Assembly (NCBI GenBank): GCA_049652385.1
Contig: JBASDX010000001.1
Span: 28,698-92,697 of the forward strand
Reading direction: 5' to 3'
Origin: Bacteroidales bacterium
GTDB lineage: Bacteria > Bacteroidota > Bacteroidia > Bacteroidales > UBA932
Length of the DNA stretch: 64,000 bases
Part shown: positions 1 to 12,482 of the stretch, piece after piece
Position numbering within the stretch: position 1 is the first letter of the stretch
Layout of the letters: every line of letters starts with the position of its first letter
Made by a program: the position numbers and the translations under genes
The notes under the pieces: generated by a model
Databases searched by the model: none
Told to the model about the DNA's origin: nothing
What the model saw: only the letters and a program-made list of their open reading frames with translations

Positions 1-129
1 TGGTGTTGCCCCAAAATTCCTTCTATATTCACGCTCAGAAATCAGTTCGGCAATTTCTGTATAATGCAAGGCTCTTTTTTCTTCTTCTAAAACTTTAGCT
101 ATTGCTTCTTTCCAGGTTAGTTCTTTCAT
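1..129 (-). CDS. Partial CDS (first 43 codons, continues off the window): HARE-HTH / Mrr_N-like winged-helix protein
   Basis: ATG at 129-127. My own translation is MKELTWKEAIAKVLEEEKRALHYTEIAELISEREYRRNFGATP. The pattern (short helix, then xxYxEIxxxI) is typical of HARE-HTH N-termini of restriction-associated proteins. Same strand as the helicase gene and 42 nt downstream of its stop. Confidence 0.4.
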   Translation of the reverse strand, partial: MKELTWKEAIAKVLEEEKRALHYTEIAELISEREYRRNFGATP

Positions 130-171
130 GGTTTTTGAGTTTTATTACGATAAAATTTCGTCTTATACGTA

Positions 172-2700
172 TTAGTTATATTGATCCACAGGTTCATTGA
201 CAAATGTTTTTTCATAGTCACTTCTGCTGAGGACGGTGTCGTATAGTCCAACTTCTTCTCCTTCGTGTTTATTGATTCCAATATACTCCAAGCTGGCATC
301 TTCATATCTCTTGAATTTATAAACAGCGTCGTTCATCAGCGCCGAATTAAAAACATTTAGGCTAACAAGAAGCTCAAAATCTTTTACTGCCAGCCCTGTA
401 ACTTTTTTGAAAAGACCCGGCTCAAGCTGCGTGATAACATCTTTCAAGCTCCTTTCCCTAAAATCTGTTAGGTACATAAAAACCGGAACCCGGGTAGCGA
501 ACTTGATGAGTTTCTCTTGAATTTGTTTTCTCAAGCTCTTGTATTCCTTTTCTTCTTCTGTCAGTTCCTTTTTTTCTGCCTTAGAAAGCTTGCCGTCGTT
601 CGCTTCTTTCTTCGCTTTTTTAACGCTTTCTGATTTATTGATAATGGTTTCGATATCTTGATTCAAACTCCGAAATCCTTCAATATTCATTAAAGCATTC
701 ATGGCTTCTTCATTAGCCATCAAGCGGGCCAGTGTATTGTTGTCCACATTAACCAGCAAAGCACTTTCCCACCGCCTTGCCAGAAGCGTAGCGGTTGTGC
801 CACTCATGGCAATATCTAAAACTCCTGCAGCATCTATTTGTTTCATGGAACTTCCGTCATAAGCCAGTACGGGTAAGAAGTTGATGAAATCTGCCACATT
901 CTTTTCAGGATTAGCTTCATTAACATTCAGGCGACATGCATAATCAGCGATTTGTCGTAGAGCTCTATTAGGTGCAAAATCAAAGACATAGCACTCTTCT
1001 TTTAATATGTCCTCTTTGTTAGGTGATTTACTGTCTGGATTTTTGATGCCCCAAGGTGTTTGTACCCGGAATGCTGCTTGAAAATAAGTTTCTGGACTAG
1101 ATGAATTCCTCAACATAAAGATTCCTGTCCAAGGTTTTACGGAAACACCTGTAGTCAATTTGCCACAAGATAGGGTAATGGTTTTTGATTCCAATGGGTT
1201 GTCAGTCATGGCGTCTAGAACGGGTGGCAAAGCTTGTACGCCAATACCCGCTTGTGTTCCCGCTGCCACTACTACCGTAAAATCGTGGTAAAACCTATTT
1301 TGCCTTTGCCTTAATAAATTAGCCATCGCGTAGCAAGCTGCTACGGAAGGTAGAAACCAAAAAGTATGGTTCAAGACGTTCAGCAATGGGGCGTGAGAAA
1401 ACGGTAACGGAGGTTTTTTAGCTCCCATTTTTAAGTGGTCAACAGTGGTTTCACTAAAGGATCCGCGAATTAAATCCAACCATTTTTGGACTTCATCCTC
1501 ATATGTAAACCTTGCCTTGGAACGCTCACCTTCTGCTGCAAAAAATACGTTCAAATCAAAACCGTCAAATTCACCCATATCGGCTATCCGGCTGATGGAG
1601 TCCGGCAGTTGGTAAGTCATCATAACCATGCGAGGCAAAGGTGCATAAGGGTTTTCTCCTTTGCTTTCATCCCACTCTTCTTTTGCTTTTTGCTCGTCTG
1701 AATACGTCCAGTTAAAGATTTGTTCTTCAATAAATTCACCCGTTGCTATAGCACGAAAAGGCGTACCCGATAGATACAAATAGTGATTGGTGGTGATAGG
1801 GATTGTATCTACATCAAAGTAGTCCATGCCTTCACCCACCCCAAAGGCAATTTCTCTATTGCCTTCTGCTTCAAAAAGTTCTTTGGCATTGTCCCGCCAG
1901 GCGCCATAATGGTATTCGTCAAAAATCACACAATCCCAGTGGGTAGCGTGCACCCATTCGTTTTTTGTTTTGATGCCACCCGTACTTGTGTTTTTACCAA
2001 GATAATCTTGAAACGAGCCAAAACAAACAAATGGTTTATGCATATCGGCGTCTTCATAGCTCAATCCATTGCGCGAGATAAATTGCCATCCTTTAAAATC
2101 TACGTGGGTCAATAAATCTTCCTCCCAAGCGCTTTGTACGGCAGGTTTAAAGGTGAGTACCAAGACTTTTGTCCATCCCATTTTTTTTGCCAATTGATAG
2201 CTTGCAAAAGTTTTTCCAAAGCGCATCTTAGCATTCCAGAGAAAATGAGGCGTTTTCTCGGGGTTTTCTTTTGTATAGCTTTTGAAATACACCATAGTCT
2301 TTTTAACGGCATCTTCTTGCTCGGGTCGCATCTTGAACGAATGCGTTCGGTTGGTTTCCGTGCGTTCTCCCGTTTTGATTTCCCAAATGGCCCTGCGTAA
2401 ATCGTTCAGACCACATACAAACCATTCACCTTCTGGGTTTTGGAAACCTTGCTCACGCAATTGGCGATGCACATCATGGTCGCTGAAACAGCTACCATCG
2501 CGCTTCATGGCCGATTCTTCAAACACGATTTTATAAGGAATGGCTGCTGTGCCCAGTTGCTCTTTGATACGTGTTTGAGCGTCACGGTCTGTGTAGCCTA
2601 TCTTTAACCACCCTTTGTGCGTTGCTACACCTACTAGCTCATATGCATAGATGGTAGGTTTAGTAACGGGCCGAGCCGGGAAAAACTCTTTCTTACTCAT
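172..2700 (-). CDS. GIY-YIG (T5orf172-type) nuclease domain fused to an SF2 DEAD/DEAH (ResIII-like) helicase; putative restriction/translocase subunit
   Basis: 842-aa ORF. N-terminus TIYAYELV...WLKIGYT...R..E...EWF matches the GIY-YIG/T5orf172 pattern. Walker A is KMRFGKTF, motif II is VIFDEYH, and helicase C-terminal motifs follow. Sits next to a methyltransferase gene. Confidence 0.8.
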   Translation of the reverse strand: MSKKEFFPARPVTKPTIYAYELVGVATHKGWLKIGYTDRDAQTRIKEQLGTAAIPYKIVFEESAMKRDGSCFSDHDVHRQLREQGFQNPEGEWFVCGLNDLRRAIWEIKTGERTETNRTHSFKMRPEQEDAVKKTMVYFKSYTKENPEKTPHFLWNAKMRFGKTFASYQLAKKMGWTKVLVLTFKPAVQSAWEEDLLTHVDFKGWQFISRNGLSYEDADMHKPFVCFGSFQDYLGKNTSTGGIKTKNEWVHATHWDCVIFDEYHYGAWRDNAKELFEAEGNREIAFGVGEGMDYFDVDTIPITTNHYLYLSGTPFRAIATGEFIEEQIFNWTYSDEQKAKEEWDESKGENPYAPLPRMVMMTYQLPDSISRIADMGEFDGFDLNVFFAAEGERSKARFTYEDEVQKWLDLIRGSFSETTVDHLKMGAKKPPLPFSHAPLLNVLNHTFWFLPSVAACYAMANLLRQRQNRFYHDFTVVVAAGTQAGIGVQALPPVLDAMTDNPLESKTITLSCGKLTTGVSVKPWTGIFMLRNSSSPETYFQAAFRVQTPWGIKNPDSKSPNKEDILKEECYVFDFAPNRALRQIADYACRLNVNEANPEKNVADFINFLPVLAYDGSSMKQIDAAGVLDIAMSGTTATLLARRWESALLVNVDNNTLARLMANEEAMNALMNIEGFRSLNQDIETIINKSESVKKAKKEANDGKLSKAEKKELTEEEKEYKSLRKQIQEKLIKFATRVPVFMYLTDFRERSLKDVITQLEPGLFKKVTGLAVKDFELLVSLNVFNSALMNDAVYKFKRYEDASLEYIGINKHEGEEVGLYDTVLSRSDYEKTFVNEPVDQYN

Positions 2701-2797
2701 TTTCGTTCTTTTTATGCATTGGTTTGCTTATGTTTTTTTACCTGCAATAGATTTATTTTTTTTTAGTATTACCGTTGGCGGCAAGCATTTTCAAAGC

Positions 2798-2812
2798 GTG
2801 ACAATTTGTCAC
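2798..2812. promoter_or_regulatory. Perfect 15-bp palindrome GTGACAATTTGTCAC between the methyltransferase and helicase genes (candidate operator)
   Basis: Read directly: arms GTGACAA and TTGTCAC around a central T. Lies 98 nt upstream of the helicase start codon. Confidence 0.35.
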
Positions 2813-2934
2813 ACTTTCATTTTTTTTAATTTCGAGTCTTTGCTTTCTGTTAAAAACCATTTTTCCTGTTCGTCACTCCACAGAGTACGCACCTGCTTGT
2901 CCTCAAAGACTTGTATGGATTCTTTTTTACTCAT
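2809..2934 (-). pseudogene. 41-codon ORF; possible truncated remnant of a BRO-N/antirepressor-like gene
   Basis: My own translation is [41 protein letters not shown]. Its ATG overlaps the methyltransferase stop (GATGAGTAA). The N-terminal motif F-x-x-K-x-VR-x-x-W-x-D-E-x-E-K-W resembles N-termini of longer DNA-binding proteins seen in R-M loci; this is from memory, not searched. Confidence 0.25.
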
Positions 2935-4456
2935 CTGTGTCATCTTCCGTGTTTAAATCCATAGGACGAATCATACTTTCAATGAAATCTATTTCTTCTT
3001 GGGTTAAACCGTATTTTTTGTAAAGTTTTTCGTCTGTCCAAGGTTCAGAGAAATCTTGAGCAGGCACAAACTGATACACACCTCTTGCAGCATTTTGAGT
3101 GTTTTTCTTAAACAAAACTAAAAATCGAAAAAATTTAGTGTTAATATAACTAATTACATTCTTTGCAATTATTTCATTCGAATAAGGCCCTATAAGTAAA
3201 TAGGTTTCTGAGCAGACTGTCCACTTCTCTCCAAGAAAGGGTTGTCCCAAAACTCTATACGGGAATGATCCTCTCTCACCATATGCTTTGGCAATAAAAA
3301 CTTTGAATTCTTTTATCCATTCCGTATTTTGGATAATGGATCCCTTATCAATATACCCGTTGTTAGGATAAGAATATATTTTAACACTATTAGCAAATTT
3401 TTTATTTTTAGGTTTTACGGAACTAACTATACCAAAAGGTTTTCTCGAACTAATTTGTTTAAAAAATTGATCTTCCTTCTTTTGAGCTATTTTTCTTATT
3501 ATTGGTATGGACTCATTAAAACGAATAAAGCTATCAGTATTTTTTTCAAGCAAAGGTCTCTTAAGTCTGGATTCCTCTCCTTTTCTTATCGAGACGACCT
3601 CACAATCACCATAATAAGCCTTTTCCCATAGAAAATAACAAACGCCACCTGATATATCAACACCTGGAAAACACTCGGTTGAATCAAAATAATCAACTAG
3701 TTTTGAAATTCTTCTATCATTTAACATTTCCTCCCTGAATTCATCCAATCCTTTTCCTCCAGCGAACCAACGAGATGGGATAATCATTGAAAGATATTTA
3801 GGACTCATTTTTTTTGCCTGTTGAATAAATTTCTGATATATAGGTGTTGCGCTTGTACCCATACCTCCTCCATCACTCAGCTGATAAGGTGGATTGCCTA
3901 TAATGACATCAAACTTCATATTAAATATTTTTTCCGGGTTCTTTGTATGAATAAAGTTATAAGCATAAGTCTCTAACGCATCATCACGGTCGTATACGTC
4001 TTGGCTTGCACCGCAATAAGAACATTTTCCATCTTGCCAGGTATGTTGCATGCGCTTGTAATAGATATTGCCTTGTTCGTTATCAAAGGCTTCACAAACA
4101 GAGTATTTACCATTGGCTGTTTTAGAGCAATAGACACTTCTGCGCGAAAGAAAAGAGGTGAGTTCCGTAATGGCTATGCCATAGAGTTGCTTGCTGAAAA
4201 TATGGTTAATACGTTCTTGCTTGTCGGGTATTTTGGTTTCCAGGCCGTGCATGAGCCTCTTTGCCATCTCTCGCAAGAACACGCCCGTTTTACTTACAGG
4301 GTCCAGAAAGCGGGCGTTTGGATTACTCCACAACTCGGCAGGCAATAAATCCAGCATGTCGTTTACCAAATGGGGTGGCGTAAACACCTCGTCGTTGCTT
4401 AAGTTGGCAAGGCAGGTGAGCACATCGGGATTATAATTTGTTTGCATCATCACCAA
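2927..4456 (-). CDS. Eco57I-family N6-adenine DNA methyltransferase
   Basis: 509 aa. Motif X is [14 protein letters not shown], motif I-like is [12 protein letters not shown], and the catalytic motif IV is IIGNPPYQ. A long C-terminal region could be the target-recognition part. Confidence 0.85.
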
Positions 4457-5093
4457 GTTTTAAGAAGTGAATAAGCGGAAAGTCTTTTATGGGTTCGTCA
4501 ATAGAAGCGGCTTGTCCCTCGTCATTGAAGAGTGAAAATTGATGGGTTTTCTCTACCAAGAACTTAAATACATAATCTCTACGCTTCATCATAAAACCGT
4601 TGACAGCGCTCCATTCTGAAAAAACGATGGGCTCTTTAGTCACCGGATTCGTAAAATCCAGGGCATCGCCCCAAAGAATATTTCTGTTTAACAAGAAACG
4701 AATACTTCGTTTGCATTCCTCTTTACAATTTTCTTTAAACAAAGCGTGGTACCGCTCGTTAAAAATGGTAAATAGGCGCTCTCTGCATTCCCGGGCGTTG
4801 TCTTCTAATATTTCTACTCCATAAATGCTAGATATAGCTAGGACAGCATAACGCTCCCAGTCAAATTGGTTTTTACTGTATTGCCGGTCAACCACACTGA
4901 GTTTCCTTTTGAGTATTTCTGCAAGAAAGTTGCCGTTTCCACAAGCAGGCTCTAAGAAGCGAGAGTCTATGCGTTCCGTTTCATGTTTTACCAAATCAAG
5001 CATTGCATTTACTTCCCGCTCGTTAGTAAACACTTCTCCGTGGTCTGCAACCCTTTTTTTGGATTTTACTTGTTTGCTTGCTTGTTGTGTCAT
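4431..5093 (-). CDS. Methyltransferase-like protein with a SAM-binding half only (no NPPY catalytic motif)
   Basis: 220 aa. [17 protein letters not shown] (motif X-like), [12 protein letters not shown] (motif I), IYGVEI, ILWGDAL. The protein ends without any (D/N)PPY motif. Overlaps the next methyltransferase gene by 26 nt. Confidence 0.6.
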
Positions 5094-5099
5094 TTCGCT

Positions 5100-6929
5100 T
5101 TAATATTCACTAACATCCTCTTCCTCATTGATATAAATACCTTCCTCTTCGTTGCTTTTCTCACGAGCAATGGTTTTCCCCATGGCTTTTTCTATGCGTT
5201 GTAAAATACGCTCTTGCCTGTCTTTGAAAAAGCCATAAAAATCATCTTGATACAGAAAATCCGGATTGACTACATGAGTTTCTAATATTTCAATGAATTC
5301 ATCATCTGAAACATTTAATTTTTTCTTCAGACGATCCAGATATTTACTGGGTGCATCTCCGCTTACAAATCGATTAGTTCTACCCGACAAAGGTGTTTTA
5401 TTGATAATAGAGTCATAGGAACTTCGTGGAATAGCATTCTCCGCTTTTTCGCACCACGCAATAGGAAATATATGATGAATATCTATAGATTCTGAAAAAT
5501 AAGTGCTGAAATCAATTTTTGTCCCAGAGAGCCAGTCACGGGTGTTGTTATCTAATAAGACGGCATAGACTCCTTTGTACGCAGCACTGTTTCTTGTTCT
5601 TAGTGTAAGTAATCGAGACGGAACAAAGTTCGCGTCAAAAATAGTTTTTGGTTCGGGCCCGTTATTACTTATCCAATCTATAACCTGTACAATATCGAGG
5701 GCATATCTTGTTTCGTTGGCAGAACCATATAGTTCTCCAAAAACACCACACCAGAACCAACGCATAAGCTTATTCTTATTGCCGATATTGTCAATTTCAT
5801 TTCCTAATTGTGAAAGAATAGCTGCCATGGGAACCAGTTGAGTCGTGTAAGGAACGTCTCTTGAGTGAAATATGTGGTTTTCAACAAGTATTTTGGATGC
5901 TTTGATAAAACCTTCTGCTACCTGCTCTTTATATTTCAAATAATCGGGAAGTTCCAGATTTAACATTTCCTTTCTCTTTGCGCTTACCGCAGGGAGATTT
6001 TCTTTTTGACCGCTAAGCTCATGATAGATTCTACTCCTGTAGGTGGAGACAAGAGTGACAGCCTGAATAAAATCCGTTTCACTGGTTTTGTCCAATACTT
6101 TGTACGGTTTAAATTGTGTTTTGATATGTAACCAGTCTTCTTTTAAGTCAAATTCTTCAGAAGCAAAAGTGGCGGTAAGGAGCTCAAAGACGGTAAGTGA
6201 TACCCCACCGGTATTGACTTTTTCAAATACTTGACAAACAGCTTCTTTGGGGTTCTCCTTAGTCATTTGAATAACAGGCAGTGAATAATTGTTGAATCCT
6301 AGAATAATTTTTTTGTGAAACTCATTCCAGAATTTGATTTTTTCTTTATCATAATCCCAATACTCAAAAAAAGCAGGAAACCACGTGTCGTATTCATCTA
6401 CCATGCTTACAGGGTACATGAGACTTTCAAATTCCTTTTCTTGTGTTGTGAGATCTAATACAATATCACGCCCGATATTCTCGGTAATTATTTTATTCTC
6501 GTTGATGGAAAAGATGGCTTCCTCAAGATCGGTTCCGGGGTCAAGGGCTTTTTGCATATCAATATAATACCATCTCTTGATTTCATATCCTTTGGCATTT
6601 TTGGTTGTTACAACCTTGTTTGATATGATAGCCTGATATAGAGAGGTAAGACGTTGTTGTCCATCAAGGATTAGCAATTCAGGTTTGCTGGAATTTGTTA
6701 ATGGAGCACCTTCTACCATTTTTGTCTTGAAACGAACAGACTCATTTCCTGTTTCAAGTAACATCACGGCTCCAATAGGGAAGGATTTAGCAACACTTGC
6801 CAATATGCCTTTTATTCGATTGTCATCCCAGACCCATCCTCTCTGAAAATCTGGCAGTTGAATTTTCCCTATATGTATGTTTTTTAGAATTTCATAAAGA
6901 CTTGTCTTCTTTGAATCAAAAGTTTCCAT
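5100..6929 (-). CDS. GmrSD-type enzyme: DUF262 (ParB-like NTPase) N-domain + DUF1524 His-Me finger nuclease C-domain
   Basis: 609 aa. Contains LPDFQRGWVW and the LILDGQQRLTSL (DGQQR) motif, plus C-terminal IDIHHIFP...INKTPLSGRTN. Its stop is 6 nt from the next gene start. Confidence 0.85.
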   Translation of the reverse strand: METFDSKKTSLYEILKNIHIGKIQLPDFQRGWVWDDNRIKGILASVAKSFPIGAVMLLETGNESVRFKTKMVEGAPLTNSSKPELLILDGQQRLTSLYQAIISNKVVTTKNAKGYEIKRWYYIDMQKALDPGTDLEEAIFSINENKIITENIGRDIVLDLTTQEKEFESLMYPVSMVDEYDTWFPAFFEYWDYDKEKIKFWNEFHKKIILGFNNYSLPVIQMTKENPKEAVCQVFEKVNTGGVSLTVFELLTATFASEEFDLKEDWLHIKTQFKPYKVLDKTSETDFIQAVTLVSTYRSRIYHELSGQKENLPAVSAKRKEMLNLELPDYLKYKEQVAEGFIKASKILVENHIFHSRDVPYTTQLVPMAAILSQLGNEIDNIGNKNKLMRWFWCGVFGELYGSANETRYALDIVQVIDWISNNGPEPKTIFDANFVPSRLLTLRTRNSAAYKGVYAVLLDNNTRDWLSGTKIDFSTYFSESIDIHHIFPIAWCEKAENAIPRSSYDSIINKTPLSGRTNRFVSGDAPSKYLDRLKKKLNVSDDEFIEILETHVVNPDFLYQDDFYGFFKDRQERILQRIEKAMGKTIAREKSNEEEGIYINEEEDVSEY

Positions 6930-7221
6930 AATAGAATATTCGATAATTGATTTAAGTATTAGTTGTCCTTGAGCCGAAGCTGTTTATTTTCGGGTTTACT
7001 AGATATATTCAAATTTATGAAAAAACCCTCTGAGCACAAAAACCACTAATCCCCAAATAGTTTTATCAGAAGATATTTCTTGAAGGCTCAAGCGCGATGG
7101 AGTATCATTTAAATTTTGGCTTTTCAAAAAGCATGGAAGCACCGTCAAGTAGACACCCTAATATAATCAATACTATCAGCAACATAATAGACAGTTATTA
7201 ATAGGTTGGTAATTACGCCAC

Positions 7222-7260
7222 TTAAAATAAAAAAGCCCTACGTCAAAACATGACGTAGGC
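7222..7260 (-). terminator. Rho-independent terminator-like hairpin
   Basis: CCTACGTCA-aaaca-TGACGTAGG stem, followed on the minus strand by CTTTTTTATTTT. Confidence 0.5.
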
Positions 7261-7262
7261 AT

Positions 7263-7352
7263 ATTTATGCAACGCATAAAAGCGTTAAACGACAGTGACA
7301 CAGCAGCTTGTAAGAAATGGTCCTGCGGGGTACGACTTCTCATAATTAGCAG
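7263..7352. repeat. Intergenic repeat core, copy A (about 90 nt)
   Basis: ATTTATGCAACGCATAAAAGCGTTAAA...GGTCC...CATAATTAGCAG. 74 of 90 positions are identical to 10565-10654 in my hand alignment. Confidence 0.8.
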
Positions 7353-7400
7353 TAAATCAGCAAAATGAGCACTTTATGCGACGCATGAAAAGCTGTCGGT

Positions 7401-7450
7401 AACAAAAAAGCGGAAGCCTCTGCCCGTTCCCTTTGCTTCCGCGTTTTGTT
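7401..7450. repeat. Conserved hairpin AACAAAAAAGCGGAAGC-loop-GCTTCCGCGTTTTGTT, copy A
   Basis: Inverted repeat read directly. The same arms recur at 9793-9841 and, degenerate, at 12384-12435. Confidence 0.8.
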
Positions 7451-7491
7451 ATGGTAGCGCCTAATTAAAAAATTGATCAGACACTAAAGTT

Positions 7492-9468
7492 TTAAAGTAC
7501 AGGAATCCCTATTTCTTTCAAATACAGGAACGTAGGGTCGTAAAATGTAGACTGTCGGGTGAGGTCATTTTCGCTTCCTTTGGGTACGACTATTACCATT
7601 CCTTGGCGTGCCCTTGTTAGAAGAACACGGTAAGCATTTATTAAATAGCTTATTCTTTCTGGTTTTCGAATTCGTTGCCATTTGGTACCCACAAATGAGA
7701 ATGTTTCCCAACCAGTTTCTTCATATCTTAAATCCCCATCCCACGTAACGCATGCCCAATCAAGTTCCAAACCTTGGATTTGAAATTCTGTGGCTACGTC
7801 TTCAAGAAAATATGAAGAGCGGACATCATCTTTACCATTTAAAAACCAATGTACCGGATTTATTGGAGTCCTTACATCAATGGCATGTGGTTTCAATCTT
7901 TGGGCCTGAGAAGATACAATTAAGCCATATCGCTCACTGCCTCTAGCTTTTCTTTTCAACCAATCTTTAGCCTTAGATAAATCGCGTGTAATGACAATTG
8001 GGTAGTTGTCTTTTATTAATTCATACATCTCTTTTGCTTTTTCTTTTTCCATATCAAGCAAATACTTCACAAATGAAGAAAGGTTTTCAGCTCTAAATGA
8101 TCGCATTGATACGTTGAGATGTAAATCTACGTTTTGATAGACTTTGGTTATCTGTTGTAACTCTTTTACGGCTTCTTCTGCATCATATTCTGATTCAATC
8201 AGGTTGGGAGAAATATAAACGTTCCAGTGTGGGAATTCATTTTTGATTGCCTTCAACCATTCAGAAATCCCAGCCTCACCGGTATTAATTTCTTGTCCAC
8301 CACCTACTAGGCAAACAATTACAGCCCAATCTTCATGACGATTTAGACATGATATAAGAAACTCGGGTTCAGAGTAATCAAAATTGGGTTGATTCTTTTT
8401 TGACTTCATAAACTTAACAGTCTGTTCTTTATTCCATGCTCTTTGAGCTTCATCAAAAATGGCAACATGATCGTATGGTGGTTTTTGATCAACTAAGTAG
8501 GCGTCTCTGTAATGGTGTATATTTTGGATAAATGTTTTAACACTGGATTTTATTTGTCCTTTAGTAAGTCTCGTATCTGAATCTGCCTGGTTTTTTAGTC
8601 TATCTCTAGTTAATGCTTCTTGCAAAACAGCCACAAGTGGCCCGTTACCCGACAAATAAACACTCATTGTGTTACCGACTTCATCTTGTCGTGTTGTAGC
8701 GATTTTTAATCCAACTAATGTTTTTCCTGCACCAGGAACGCCTGTAACAAAACAAATGATTTTTGAGTGTTCCGATTTGGCCTTTTCTATGATATCAGAT
8801 ATGACTGAGGTAGTCTTTGTTAAGTTAATGGCGCCGGCATCAGACCTTGTGATATTAGCTACTGAATGGTTCTGATATAATGCTATTGCTGCTTCAACGA
8901 TTGTTGGAGTAGGAGAGTAACTACCATAAGCAAACTCTTCTGAATTAATTCTATTCTCATCAAAAAAGAAGGTTAAAGCATTATTAATAACCTCAATAAG
9001 ACCAGATTTGTTAATCTTTAAAGGTTCTAATAGGTTGTCATTATGGGGAGTAGTAATTAGATTGATATACGAATGAGAAGCATCCGTAGCCAGCAAAATA
9101 GGGACAATCAAGGCTTTGTGACTGGGTTCATGAAAATATTTAAGGTCCAATGCGTAATCATATACCTGTTCTATATCTGCTCTTAGATAATTTTTCTCTC
9201 CGACTTTGAATTCAATTAAAAAAACAACCCCTTCAATCAATAAAAGGACATCTACACGTTTACCCATACGCGGAATCGAAAACTCAAAAAAGATAGTTCC
9301 TTCATAGGAATTAAGAGCTTTTTTTAAGAACTCAATTTCATATTCCCAGGCACTGTTTTGTTTAAATAAGGTATCAAAGGTGTTGTTTCGTGTAATCTCT
9401 CCAATAATATCACTTGTGGTTTTTGAAAGAAAGGAAGATATGCTGTCTTTGTAATAATAATTACGCAT
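7492..9468 (-). CDS. PD-(D/E)xK nuclease-like N-domain + DUF2075 (Schlafen-like SF1) ATPase/helicase
   Basis: 658 aa. N-terminal VDVLLL...LIEFK fits a D...ExK motif. Walker A is GVPGAGKT, Walker B is IFDEAQRAW, and C-terminal LLTRARQGMVIVV is SF1 motif VI-like. Confidence 0.8.
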   Translation of the reverse strand: MRNYYYKDSISSFLSKTTSDIIGEITRNNTFDTLFKQNSAWEYEIEFLKKALNSYEGTIFFEFSIPRMGKRVDVLLLIEGVVFLIEFKVGEKNYLRADIEQVYDYALDLKYFHEPSHKALIVPILLATDASHSYINLITTPHNDNLLEPLKINKSGLIEVINNALTFFFDENRINSEEFAYGSYSPTPTIVEAAIALYQNHSVANITRSDAGAINLTKTTSVISDIIEKAKSEHSKIICFVTGVPGAGKTLVGLKIATTRQDEVGNTMSVYLSGNGPLVAVLQEALTRDRLKNQADSDTRLTKGQIKSSVKTFIQNIHHYRDAYLVDQKPPYDHVAIFDEAQRAWNKEQTVKFMKSKKNQPNFDYSEPEFLISCLNRHEDWAVIVCLVGGGQEINTGEAGISEWLKAIKNEFPHWNVYISPNLIESEYDAEEAVKELQQITKVYQNVDLHLNVSMRSFRAENLSSFVKYLLDMEKEKAKEMYELIKDNYPIVITRDLSKAKDWLKRKARGSERYGLIVSSQAQRLKPHAIDVRTPINPVHWFLNGKDDVRSSYFLEDVATEFQIQGLELDWACVTWDGDLRYEETGWETFSFVGTKWQRIRKPERISYLINAYRVLLTRARQGMVIVVPKGSENDLTRQSTFYDPTFLYLKEIGIPVL

Positions 9469-9792
9469 GAATTAATACTATTTATGATCAGATATTATTC
9501 TGATATTTTGCATATTTATTTCAAAGTTACGTCAAAACGTGGCGTTTTAATAAAGATGATTCGTGCTGTTTTGAAGTGTTTTGCATAGGGGCGGCTTTAA
9601 ACATAGATTTAAGGAAGTATAACAAAGATAAAATATTATTGTTGAGGTTCATAAGTACCACAAAAAACAAAAAATTGTTCTTTGAGAAGATACAGCTTTT
9701 TACAAAACACGGTCCCGCAGGTCGCAATTTTTTTTACTGGAAGTGTGTCAAGGAGATGAGCATTCTATGCGATGCATGGTAATGTTGCCTGT

Positions 9793-9841
9793 AACAAAAC
9801 GCGGAAGCCTCGATACGTTCCACTTGCTTCCGCGTTTTGTT
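9793..9841. repeat. Conserved hairpin AACAAAACGCGGAAGC-17 nt-GCTTCCGCGTTTTGTT, copy B (perfect 16-bp arms)
   Basis: Read directly. Located 38 nt downstream of the lipoprotein gene stop (minus strand). Confidence 0.85.
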
Positions 9842-9878
9842 ATTGCAACTCCTATAAAGTAAATAAAGATGATTTAGA

Positions 9879-10340
9879 TTATTTGGTAAATGTAATCCAC
9901 TCAGCGTCATCTTCGTCCTTCAGTCTGATTTTGAATGAATTGTCTGAAAGAACACGAATGTCTAAAGCTACGTCCAGCGGTATTTCTCCTATTGTTAATA
10001 AAGTAAGTGTATTACCATCTTTAGAGACGAAAAAATAGCAATCAATAAAAGCATCTAAATAACCGTCATCATATTCGTCAAAAACAACAGGAAGTCTTAA
10101 TTTGCCATGTACTAACACAGTTACAATATCAACAAAAGTTGCTTCTTTTGGCGGGTTGTACTTTTCAAGAAAAATGAGTTGAACATTTTCTTCTTCAACA
10201 TTTGCCTGGAATGTTCCATTTAATACACGTAAAACATCTATTTGAGCTTGCGTGAAATGTTCTGGACTCATAGCATCTTGCGGAACACAGGCAATCATCC
10301 ATAATGCTAGCCCGGTAAGGAATAAGATAGATTTTCTCAT
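9879..10340 (-). CDS. Hypothetical lipoprotein
   Basis: 153 aa. Signal peptide with a lipobox-like LWMIAC. No recognisable domain. Confidence 0.6.
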   Translation of the reverse strand: MRKSILFLTGLALWMIACVPQDAMSPEHFTQAQIDVLRVLNGTFQANVEEENVQLIFLEKYNPPKEATFVDIVTVLVHGKLRLPVVFDEYDDGYLDAFIDCYFFVSKDGNTLTLLTIGEIPLDVALDIRVLSDNSFKIRLKDEDDAEWITFTK

Positions 10341-10441
10341 AATTACAATTTTAAGGTTAAAGAATAATTGTTTTCTACAAAGAAAACCGCTCTCTACGTC
10401 AAATCATGTCGTTCTCTTCAGAAGGAATCCATTTTTGTAAA

Positions 10442-10540
10442 ACAAGGTGGTAAGTAATAAATTTGTTGCTGAAAGCTGTAAATGCCAGGTAATCTGCCAA
10501 ATGTGCATGTGTTGGAGTTATGTATTACTTACCACCTTGT
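10442..10540. repeat. Perfect 18-bp inverted repeat (ACAAGGTGGTAAGTAATA / TATTACTTACCACCTTGT) with a 63-nt spacer, followed by a T-run
   Basis: Read directly. GCAGTTTTTT follows the right arm. Confidence 0.8.
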
Positions 10541-10564
10541 GCAGTTTTTTAATGAAAACGGCCT

Positions 10565-10654
10565 ATTTATGCAACGCATAAAAGCGTTAAATGGCGGTAA
10601 TACAGCAGTTTGTGAGAAACGGTCCCCAAGGGGATGACTTTTCATAATTGGCAG
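10565..10654. repeat. Intergenic repeat core, copy C
   Basis: Aligns with 7263-7352 (74/90 identical by hand). Confidence 0.8.
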
Positions 10655-10701
10655 AGAGCCAAGAAGATAAGCGAATTACGCAACGCATAAAAGTTGTTCG
10701 C

Positions 10702-11394
10702 CTATAGCAAATACTCCAGAATATCACTGATGCAATCCAGCTCCAGAAAGCGCTCGCTTTGTGAGGTATAGGGGATTTCTTCGTGGGCCCAGGTGACATG
10801 GTGAGGGATGTGGGCGGCGTAGGCGCCGAGTTCCAGGACGGGTACGATGTCCGATCGCATGGAGTTGCCAATCATCAGAAAGTTGTCTGCCGGGCAATCC
10901 AGGTGGTGCAGCAGTTTGGTGTACTCGGTACGGGTCTTGTCGCTCATGATTTCAATGTGGTGGAAATACCGCTCCAGTCCGGATTTTCTTAACTTCCGTT
11001 CCTGATCCAGCAGGTCGCCTTTGGTGGCTACGACCAGACGGTAGCGTCCGTTCAGCCGTTCCAGGGTTTCAACAACACCCGGTAACAGTTCAATGGGTTT
11101 TTGCAACATGTCCCTGCCCATATTCAGGATATCTTGTACCCGTGCAGCTGGCAAAGTGTTGTCAGAGATGCGGATGGCTGTATCTATCATGCTCAACACA
11201 AACGCTTTCACGCCGTATCCGTACCATTCCAGATCTTCTACGATTGTTTTATCCAGCTCTTTTTGTACTTCTTCTACCGGCATGTAGGCACTCAGCATGG
11301 CACACAATTTTTTGCTTGACTCACGGAAAAACAGCTCGTTCACCCATAAGGTATCGTCTGCATCGAACGCTATGGTTTTGATCTTTTCTTTCAT
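10702..11394 (-). CDS. HAD-superfamily hydrolase
   Basis: 230 aa. Has motif I FDADDTLW, a later ATKGD, and IGNSMRSD (motif IV region). Confidence 0.8.
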   Translation of the reverse strand: MKEKIKTIAFDADDTLWVNELFFRESSKKLCAMLSAYMPVEEVQKELDKTIVEDLEWYGYGVKAFVLSMIDTAIRISDNTLPAARVQDILNMGRDMLQKPIELLPGVVETLERLNGRYRLVVATKGDLLDQERKLRKSGLERYFHHIEIMSDKTRTEYTKLLHHLDCPADNFLMIGNSMRSDIVPVLELGAYAAHIPHHVTWAHEEIPYTSQSERFLELDCISDILEYLL

Positions 11395-11514
11395 TTGGCT
11401 GCAAAGATAGGAAGATCATATGCCATAAAACAAAAAAGAATTTTAAAATTTGTAAAAATGTACATATATTTGTACAATTATATGTGCAAACAATTTGGTT
11501 AAGTAGGAGTGAAT

Positions 11515-11769
11515 ATGTTAACAACAACACTATCAGACTTCAGAAAAGATATGAAGTCATATTTTGATAAAGTAACAATGAATAGTGACACCTTGATTAT
11601 CAACAGAGGTAAGGATACAGGTGTGGTAATCATCTCTTTGGAAGAATATAATGCTTTACAAGCAACTCAGCATGAATTGTCATCAAAGCTTAATGAGCAG
11701 AGGTTAGACGCAGCCATAGAAAAATTGAGGAGTGGAAAATCGTTTTCAAAAGAAATTAACACCGAATGA
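11515..11769 (+). CDS. yefM: Phd/YefM-family antitoxin
   Basis: MLTTTLSDFRKDMKSYFDKV...VIISLEEYNALQ. Its stop overlaps the toxin start (ATGA). Confidence 0.85.
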   Translation: MLTTTLSDFRKDMKSYFDKVTMNSDTLIINRGKDTGVVIISLEEYNALQATQHELSSKLNEQRLDAAIEKLRSGKSFSKEINTE

Positions 11770-12023
11770 GATATATTTTTGTTGACGAGTCGTGGGAAGA
11801 CTATTTGTATTGGCAAGAGACAGACAAAAAAATCTTGGAAAAGATTAACAAGCTTTTAAAAGATATTGCTAGAAATCCGTATAATGGAATTGGGAAACCG
11901 GAGCCATTAAAGTTTAAATATCAAGGTTTTTGGTCTAGAAGAATTTCGCGTGAACATAGGCTTATCTATCAAGTGAAAGATAACGACATACTTATAGCTA
12001 AGTGTAGATTTCATTATGATTGA
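11766..12023 (+). CDS. yoeB: YoeB/Txe-family toxin (ribosome-dependent mRNA interferase)
   Basis: 85 aa. ESWEDYLYWQETDKKILEKINKLLKD...GKPEPLK...GFWSRRISREHRLIY...CRFHY is very close to the E. coli YoeB pattern. Confidence 0.9.
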   Translation: MRYIFVDESWEDYLYWQETDKKILEKINKLLKDIARNPYNGIGKPEPLKFKYQGFWSRRISREHRLIYQVKDNDILIAKCRFHYD

Positions 12024-12383: not shown

Positions 12384-12435
12384 CAACAAACGAGCGGAAG
12401 CCTCGGCAAAACTCCCCGGATTCTGCGCTTTGTTG
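12384..12435. repeat. Degenerate copy D of the AACAAA..GCGGAAGC hairpin family
   Basis: CAACAAACGAGCGGAAGCCTCGG...TTCTGCGCTTTGTTG. Confidence 0.5.
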
Positions 12436-12482
12436 CAGAAACGGCAATGACACAAGGTGCAGAGTACTAGGTAATGAGCGGT

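Follow-up and report, generated by a model that had tools for sequence, protein, structure and literature searches.

A conserved operon of a half-methyltransferase, a methyltransferase and a T5orf172-helicase, read as an ATP-dependent restriction-modification system, in a Bacteroidales defence island

The first 9468 positions of a 64,000-nucleotide (nt) stretch of DNA from a Bacteroidales bacterium (contig JBASDX010000001.1, positions 28,698 to 92,697 of the forward strand; the whole stretch is hereafter called the window) are best explained, with a probability of about 0.72, as part of a defence island. In it a PDC-S41 gene, a GmrSD-like Type IV restriction gene, a restriction-modification operon of three genes (the trio) and a HARE-HTH/GIY-YIG gene are arranged in one orientation, and only the trio is a conserved unit. 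The trio lies at positions 172-5093 and encodes, in this order on one strand, a half-methyltransferase of 220 amino acids (aa; MT220), an Eco57I-type methyltransferase of 509 aa (MT509) and a T5orf172-helicase of 842 aa (HEL842). It reads as an ATP-dependent restriction-modification system, the nearest relatives of which would be the fused 'Type IIG' enzymes, the Type ISP enzymes and the DnmA-YeeB-YeeC cluster. The analysis shows which domains the proteins contain, and that the catalytic motifs are intact, that the operon is conserved, that the target-recognition region varies and that the neighbouring genes are independent modules. The features of the trio are as follows.

4431-5093, minus strand: MT220 gene, 220 aa; weak Pfam MmeI_Mtase match, no NPPY motif
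2927-4456, minus strand: MT509 gene, 509 aa; Pfam Eco57I (E = 2e-39), NPPY motif
3808-3815, minus strand: A8 tract within MT509; A7 allele in other samples of the same species
2809-2934, minus strand: open reading frame (ORF) of 41 aa without a Pfam match; Bro-N gene remnant
172-2700, minus strand: HEL842 gene, 842 aa; Pfam T5orf172 and ResIII

Relatives of HEL842 number at least 593 in a scan of one genome per species, and 80 loci from other species were taken with up to 10 kb of flank. More than 2.4 kb is present upstream of the helicase gene in 58 of these loci, and 55 of the 58 carry both MT220 and MT509 in the same order and on the same strand; in two the contig ends after MT509, and one (L044) has neither methyltransferase gene. 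The genes of the trio overlap or lie less than 20 nt apart in most loci. Homologues 70-86% identical to HEL842 are found in Bacteroidota, Ignavibacteriota, Spirochaetota, Myxococcota, Cyanobacteria, Proteobacteria, Actinobacteria, Patescibacteria (candidate phyla radiation, CPR) and in a metagenome-assembled genome (MAG) of an archaeon of the Woesearchaeota. The trio is also borne by the M. chelonae plasmid pMchErm55 (helicase 44% identical), where the Prokaryotic Genome Annotation Pipeline (PGAP) names its products 'type III restriction endonuclease subunit M', 'Eco57I ... methylase' and 'GIY-YIG nuclease family protein'. Cultured carriers include Pontibacter harenae XAAS-A31, Flagellimonas crocea DH64, Christiangramia sabulilitoris HSMS-1 and Parapedobacter soli. 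No match was obtained in complete genomes of E. coli, and phage records gave only a few matches, on fecal phage or prophage contigs.

Some loci depart from this arrangement. The orphan T5orf172-helicase gene of L044 (7211-10589) lacks both methyltransferase genes and is preceded only by a Bro-N gene, and that of the C. crudilactis plasmid pCRULAC2 (L099), which lacks both as well, lies beside aph resistance genes and a Tn3 transposase gene. In a Polaribacter locus (L030:6953-9996), MT220 and the helicase gene are separated by a tandem pair of MT509-like genes (52-54% identity with the query), which suggests duplication or exchange of specificity modules. Full-length homologues of HEL842 are present on the human-fecal phage/prophage contigs PV036449.1 (64%) and MT835565.1 (57%); therefore, the trio system may also travel on phages.

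The original prediction had joined the trio with the GmrSD-like gene upstream and the HARE-HTH gene downstream into one composite defence operon of five genes. Its domain calls are borne out by Pfam for all five proteins, and its statement that the set is not a recognised named system also stands, as no named defence system in PADLOC or NCBIfam, or in the literature that was searched, accounts for these genes together. When all window proteins were compared by tblastn with the 80 other-species loci, however, only MT220, MT509 and HEL842 were found to co-occur. The five-gene unit is not supported, because the block is not conserved as a unit in other genomes, an observation that the prediction itself had named as speaking against it. 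The features surrounding the trio are listed below.

7492-9468, minus strand: PDC-S41 gene, 658 aa; full-length match to PADLOC PDC-S41
7237-7259, minus strand: terminator-like hairpin 3' of the PDC-S41 gene, dividing it from the GmrSD/trio string
7010-7017, minus strand: Bacteroidetes-type -7 motif TAAATTTG, ~88 nt 5' of the GmrSD ATG, from a pattern scan of intergenic regions
5100-6929, minus strand: GmrSD-like gene, 609 aa; Pfam GmrSD_N (E = 4e-31)
1-129, minus strand: 5' end (first 43 codons) of the HARE-HTH gene; Pfam HARE-HTH (E = 7e-7 on the fragment)

Of the 80 loci, only three also contain a GmrSD-like gene, 22-29% identical and downstream of the trio, whereas the gene lies upstream here. 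A HARE-HTH gene is present in one locus (L051), fused to a PD-(D/E)xK-like domain and not to GIY-YIG, and no other recurrent partner of the trio emerged when all flanking ORFs of the loci were clustered. These counts bear on the view that all five genes form one integrated, composite multi-type restriction machine, which would account for the common strand, the 6-nt and 42-nt spacings, the lack of a terminator-like hairpin at the junctions within the string, the position of the sole Bacteroidetes-type -7 motif 5' of GmrSD, the fixation of the block in all contigs found of this species, and the HARE-HTH nuclease gene right after the helicase gene in L051. The absence of co-conservation largely refutes this view, HARE-HTH homologues occur without the trio and GmrSD-like proteins act as single genes; the composite machine is accordingly considered highly improbable. 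The locus is a set of two or three independent systems side by side, in which only the trio is a conserved unit. Annotation should treat it as a typical defence island and not enter the five genes as a composite system.

The HARE-HTH gene of L051 (9286-10023; Gammaproteobacteria MAG) directly follows the trio helicase gene. A HARE-HTH nuclease gene after the helicase gene is thus seen in 2 cases among 81 loci, which may reflect chance within defence islands or a weak association.

The Pfam domains of HEL842 are T5orf172, which is GIY-YIG-like (residues 26-105), and ResIII (residues 122-278). The motor motifs GKT (162-164), DEYH (261-264), SGTP (311-314) and QxxR (541-545) are invariant across 30 diverse sequences, as are the residues Y18, K33, G35, T37, R44 and E92 of the T5orf172 domain, and the C-terminal region (600-810) is conserved as strongly as the motor. 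HEL842 also aligns with positions 152-802 of the PADLOC model PDLC03626, 'REase_MTase_IIG' (E = 9e-29). It is predicted to be the restriction/translocase subunit of the trio.

MT509 is predicted to be a gamma-class N6-adenine methyltransferase of the Eco57I family, composed of a divergent N-half, an NPPY half, a variable target-recognition region and a conserved C-terminal helix. It matches the PADLOC model MTase_II (E = 8e-59) and positions 863-1359 of PDLC03626 (E = 9e-51). The motifs of MT509 and MT220 were assigned in the standard gamma-class order known from M.TaqI. In MT509 the NPPY motif (188-191) is invariant, and the N-half preceding it retains motif X (DEVFTPP), has Lys for the first Gly of motif I and Ala for the acidic residue of motif II (YGIAITE), and carries a Cys4 cluster in the motif III region; these residues are conserved within the MT509 family. 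The sequence is conserved at residues 1-280 and over the last ~40 residues (460-500), and variable between ~281 and 460. The latter segment is taken as the target-recognition region, diversifying in specificity, because the pattern of variability is that expected of such a region.

MT509 also exists in frameshifted alleles. A reduction of the A8 tract (3808-3815) to A7 splits the protein into 213 and 293 aa; the A7 tract was found in L105, and A8 in L106, L103 and L104, the A7 contig being present in at least three samples of the same species. A second allele, with a 1-nt deletion near position 3030, toward the 3' end, gives a product of 480 aa. Contigs with frameshifted MT509 have a full-length call (842 aa) for the helicase gene. 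Phase variation or decay of the methyltransferase is possible, as is assembly error. If the frameshifts are real, the loss of MT509 is tolerated, as would be expected of a methyltransferase that directs restriction to its targets, like those of Type I, III and ISP systems.

The junction of MT509 and HEL842 is a hotspot of insertion, occupied by DUF1016/YhcG genes in eight loci, by Bro-N genes in four, and also by RhuM, Fic, an insertion sequence (IS) and a toxin-antitoxin pair; PDDEXK_3 genes are placed between MT220 and MT509 in four loci. Similar passenger genes are embedded in Type I operons (PMC9881135). The 41-aa ORF of the window is 58% identical to the N-terminus of an intact 204-aa Bro-N protein encoded at the same junction in L004 (Pfam Bro-N, E = 7e-11), and by this match it was rejected as a genuine small gene and assigned as the remnant of a Bro-N gene.

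The most interesting point of the trio is its obligatory half-methyltransferase subunit. MT220 gives a sub-threshold match to Pfam MmeI_Mtase (26 bits against a cut-off of 27) and possesses the canonical motifs X (HGEVFT), I, II (YGVEI) and III (GDAL); it has no motif IV (NPPY), in place of which a family-specific, beta-rich C-terminal extension is found. The missing motif IV, together with the homology of MT220 to the N-terminal half of full-length Eco57I-type methyltransferases, would be expected of a truncated, non-functional pseudogene fragment left by rearrangement. Against such an origin, an intact ORF of ~220 aa is kept in 55 of the 55 informative loci, and homologues number thousands at 80% identity or more and form 470 clusters at E < 1e-30, nearly all of 210-240 aa. 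Moreover, 38 columns, including motifs X, I and III, are invariant over 28 diverse sequences, the AlphaFold2 (AF2) model is confident, and a homologue is kept beside a distantly related fused enzyme of E. faecium. A pseudogene is thus ruled out by conservation and is barely conceivable.

The AF2 model of MT220 built on a diverse alignment has a predicted local distance difference test (pLDDT) value of 88 and a predicted template modelling (pTM) score of 0.84; a shallow alignment of 30 sequences, at 80% identity or more, gave a pLDDT of 51 and an unusable model. Foldseek aligns only 105-140 columns of the former model, to the N-halves of the gamma-class methyltransferases CamA, BsaXI, BrxX and LlaGI, and these partial matches are weak (query-normalised TM-score 0.3-0.39, best E = 6e-3). 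As modelled, MT220 is a half-fold with a novel appendage, and we infer for it the role of a partner binding S-adenosylmethionine (SAM), a completing subunit or an adaptor.

Five solo full-length methyltransferases (P0301, P0333, P0350, P0366 and P0371) begin with an N-half resembling MT220 (41-62% identity), to which an NPPY half and target-recognition region of the MT509 kind are directly fused; two of the five were checked in their context, and neither has a helicase gene nearby. Because both halves are united in these enzymes, MT220-type and MT509-type halves can make one domain. It is tentatively conceivable, although on the whole unlikely, that the trio encodes a naturally split adenine methyltransferase, with MT220 as the only canonical SAM-binding half and MT509 supplying the NPPY half and target recognition. 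The N-half of MT509 would then be a degenerate pseudo-half bearing a zinc ribbon. Two polypeptides would have to assemble for methylation to occur, and possibly for the T5orf172-helicase to be licensed. The solo enzymes uniting both halves and the retention of MT220 even with the fused E. faecium enzyme are consistent with such a split. If true, ATP-dependent restriction-modification would gain a new kind of regulatory architecture, one that is conserved in bacteria and archaea alike.

As an ATP-dependent restriction-modification system, the trio would operate through a complex of its subunits, the formation of which, like ATP-dependent cleavage and the part played by MT220, we infer. MT509 would recognise a specific sequence via its variable target-recognition region and N6-methylate adenine at its NPPY site, thereby marking host DNA. 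HEL842 would dock on the methyltransferase complex, and at unmethylated sites its superfamily 2 (SF2) ATPase motor would translocate or loop the DNA, which would be cut by the N-terminal T5orf172 (GIY-YIG-type) nuclease in a manner comparable to Type ISP, III and I enzymes. Restriction would need MT509 for its targeting, such that a loss of MT509 would leave a tolerable state. MT220 would be an obligatory, non-catalytic partner in which the canonical half-fold for SAM binding is kept; most likely, it takes up SAM and either completes or regulates the methyltransferase or couples the methyltransferase to the motor.

Several points weigh against this interpretation. We know of no proof that every T5orf172 domain is a nuclease. 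MT509 may be inactive alone, because it departs from the canonical SAM-binding residues in motif I (K for G) and motif II (A for E). Homopolymer errors may explain the frameshift alleles, which were found in metagenome assemblies whose sequencing platform is unknown, and expression-level coupling to GmrSD is possible, as this gene lies 6 nt 5' of MT220 with no terminator between them. No experimental study of the trio family was found in the literature, with no methylation motif, ATPase or cleavage activity on record. In the nearest studied analogue, dnmA-yeeB-yeeC of B. subtilis, neither plasmid restriction nor phage protection was detected (PMC9973331).

In view of this last result, and as was concluded for DnmA-YeeB-YeeC, the trio could instead serve as an epigenetic or orphan methyltransferase whose helicase-nuclease is a relic or has been repurposed, and not be an active restriction system. 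Such an assignment agrees with the existence of solo methyltransferases uniting MT220-like and MT509-like parts without a helicase, and with the retention of the helicase alone in L044. It is nevertheless considered improbable, since purifying selection on the helicase-nuclease is very strong, all its catalytic motifs being invariant across phyla, and the target-recognition region diversifies as in active restriction-modification systems. The operon also spreads horizontally, on plasmids and in defence islands, and gathers restriction-modification passengers. Furthermore, deletion of the dnmA or yeeB homologues of Vibrio crassostreae raised the sensitivity to some phage subclades, as far as the work is cited in PMC9973331. 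An active ATP-dependent restriction-modification system is retained as the preferred reading of the trio.

The neighbouring modules could be characterised individually. The 609-aa protein matches Pfam GmrSD_N (PF03235, DUF262) and has a DGQQR motif in 'LILDGQQRLTSL'; its C-terminal part gives only weak matches to GmrSD_C (E = 0.013) and HNH_4 (E = 0.002), neither of which reaches its Pfam cut-off, along with an HNH-like motif, DIHHIFP. It also matches the PADLOC models PDC-M55C and HEC-05, and is predicted to be a GmrSD-like Type IV (modification-dependent) restriction enzyme forming an independent single-gene module. GmrSD-like proteins (BrxU, HEC-05/06) are an established single-gene, modification-dependent Type IV family, and their genes are often found within methylation-based systems such as BREX, Hma and Type I, or next to them in the same orientation (bioRxiv 10.1101/2024.01.29.577857). 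The 609-aa protein resembles this family in DUF262, the DGQQR motif, the C-terminal HNH-like motif and its single-gene nature; it differs in reaching the Pfam threshold only N-terminally, its C-terminal domain being divergent.

The complete HARE-HTH protein comprises 269 aa (L001:12572-13381), with a HARE-HTH domain (E = 4e-14), a weak GIY_YIG_2 match (E = 0.015) and a GIY-YIG-like C-terminal region containing 'IGIYML...IYVGQA...REH'. Its homologues constitute a family of ~266 aa in unrelated contexts without the trio, such as beside an integrase and a Fic gene, alone among TPR genes, or near a Cas2-like gene and AbiE. Its gene is an independent single-gene module outside the trio. In L087 (6001-12801), a homologue lies directly 5' of DUF499-DUF3780-DUF1156, the gene set of the BREX-related MANTIS/Gao_RL type. 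The 658-aa gene, which lies in the same island outside the coordinates of the original prediction, is the single-gene candidate defence system PDC-S41; residues 1-657 align with positions 1-652 of the 657 in the PADLOC model (E = 3e-288), and Pfam identifies a SLFN-g3_helicase domain (Schlafen-group-3/DUF2075 helicase; E = 5e-82).

The ORF coordinates agree with the earlier description that all the genes lie on the minus strand, that the GmrSD stop is 6 nt from the MT220 start and that the helicase stop is 42 nt from the HARE-HTH ATG. The 26-nt overlap claimed for MT220 and MT509 is reproduced with a TTG start at 4456, whereas the publicly called ATGs at 4450 and 4447, one of which is the likely start of MT509, shorten it to 20 and 17 nt, respectively. 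The MT509 stop does overlap an ATG, as had been noted; this ATG, however, belongs to the 41-aa ORF and not to the helicase gene, the ATG of which is 226 nt downstream of the MT509 stop.

On the minus strand between 6929 and 130, no terminator-like hairpin is present at any gene junction, and the only one in this interval is a weak 5-pair stem inside MT509 (4284-4300). The pattern scan found no Bacteroidetes-type -7 motif in the MT509-HEL842 and HEL842-HARE gaps. Co-transcription of GmrSD, the trio and HARE-HTH in this genome is plausible, because hairpins are absent from the internal junctions and the -7 motif is found only 5' of GmrSD; the TAAATTTG motif would be the candidate promoter. Such co-transcription would mean co-regulation of adjoining modules, not one machine.

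The segment had also been described as visibly more AT-rich than the housekeeping part. The GC content is indeed lower, at 0.37-0.42 in positions 1-11,000 against ~0.42-0.50 over most of the remaining window, although the drop is only modest. An identical HEL842 protein is encoded on 23 contigs, including a Bacteroidales MAG. On these contigs, housekeeping genes, an acetyltransferase gene and then a GH92 glycosidase gene, follow beyond the HARE-HTH gene, and the other flank of the island carries a 153-aa ORF, a HAD hydrolase gene and a YefM/YoeB pair. No island-free allele was found within the same species, as all contigs retrieved via the HAD gene carry the whole island, and neither a tRNA nor an Rfam element was found at the island border.

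The YefM/Phd-YoeB toxin-antitoxin pair is placed at the island border on the plus strand (11509-12023). A 133-nt intergenic repeat is present in two copies of 77% identity (7258-7390 and 10560-10692), and a 59-nt intergenic element with a hairpin (AAAACGCGGAAGC...GCTTCCGCGTTTTGTT) in three (7405-7463, 9796-9854 and 12389-12447). The two repeats flank the PDC-S41 gene on both sides and are also placed close to the HAD gene and the YefM/YoeB pair; possible identities are elements like repetitive extragenic palindromes or miniature inverted-repeat transposable elements (REP/MITE-like), or terminator modules at cassette junctions.

The trio family is widespread across bacterial phyla and at least one archaeon, with very high sequence conservation, and its parts would be split by current tools among the labels Type II, Type IIG and Type III. 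Treating it as one operon would improve the annotation of restriction-modification and defence systems, and the trio predicts one N6-methyladenine (m6A) motif per target-recognition variant in many methylomes. It further raises the question of the role of a conserved, catalytically dead half-methyltransferase, predicted to bind SAM, in an ATP-dependent restriction enzyme.

When the trio is compared with known systems, no named system with its gene set was found in the literature, where only general remarks are made on uncharacterised restriction-modification relatives with a helicase and GIY-YIG. BREX, DISARM, MADS, MANTIS/Gao_RL and Hma were ruled out, as none of their hallmark genes (PglZ/BrxC, DrmA/B, mad, DUF499/DUF1156, Hma proteins) is present; only weak similarity of the methyltransferase domain to MAD2 (E = 2e-4) and PglX (E = 2e-3) was recorded with PADLOC/NCBIfam. 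Sequence and profile searches gave no significant match in the PDB to any trio protein or to the fused E. faecium protein.

Type III (Mod/Res) systems resemble the trio in having a separate specificity-bearing methyltransferase and a separate ResIII-type SF2 helicase-nuclease, and PGAP labels homologues of MT220 as 'type III restriction endonuclease subunit M'. However, Mod is a beta-class enzyme, whereas MT509 is of gamma class and matches Eco57I and N6_Mtase with no N6_N4_Mtase match; likewise, the nuclease of Res is a C-terminal PD-(D/E)xK domain, while the sole nuclease-like domain of HEL842 is the N-terminal T5orf172.

Type ISP enzymes (LlaGI, LlaBIII), which restrict in an ATP-dependent manner by translocation and collision (PMC3553950), share with the trio a nuclease, an SF2 translocase, a gamma-class adenine methyltransferase and a target-recognition region. 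They differ in being single polypeptides with an Mrr-type PD-(D/E)xK nuclease and no half-methyltransferase partner, in contrast to the split genes and T5orf172 of the trio. No sequence match of the trio to the LlaGI/LlaBIII PDB chains was obtained at E <= 10, and the likeness of fold suggested by the model is only partial, of MT220 to the N-half of the LlaGI methyltransferase. The same Type ISP paper mentions related enzymes with helicase subunits and GIY-YIG nucleases (PMC3553950).

DnmA(YeeA)-YeeB-YeeC, by its description, likewise comprises three genes, for a gamma-class methyltransferase with its own target recognition, an SF2 helicase and a T5orf172 protein, and has been proposed as a Type I-like system (PMC2731913; PMC9973331). 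Its methyltransferase is of the long MmeI type without the nuclease domain, compared with the 509-aa Eco57I type of MT509; its helicase and T5orf172 are separate, whereas they are fused in HEL842; and it has no half-methyltransferase, where the trio has MT220. Morgan et al. (2009, PMC2731913) reported MmeI homologues next to which a helicase (YeeB) and a GIY-YIG protein (YeeC) are encoded, and remarked that large single polypeptides uniting nuclease, helicase, methyltransferase and target recognition 'have received little attention'.

The fused 'Type IIG' form is represented by PDLC03626, a PADLOC/REBASE-derived model of 1359 positions, separate parts of which are matched by HEL842 and MT509. 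Fused versions exist, because both proteins match this single model; the trio itself, with 226 nt and a gene remnant between methyltransferase and motor, falls outside the single-polypeptide definition of Type IIG. Experimental characterisation of neither the fused nor the split form was found in the literature. A fused protein of 1446 aa, WP_002305071.1, from a conjugative plasmid of E. faecium, contains a T5orf172-like N-terminus, a ResIII/SF2 motor, a C-terminal domain, Eco57I and target recognition, as in the trio, although its identity to HEL842 is 36% over 689 aligned positions. Its gene is preceded and overlapped by that of a 248-aa 'N-6 DNA methylase', a homologue of MT220 (37%, E = 4e-40). 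The trio thus encodes half-methyltransferase, methyltransferase and motor as separate proteins in that order, whereas the fused form unites motor and methyltransferase in one polypeptide.

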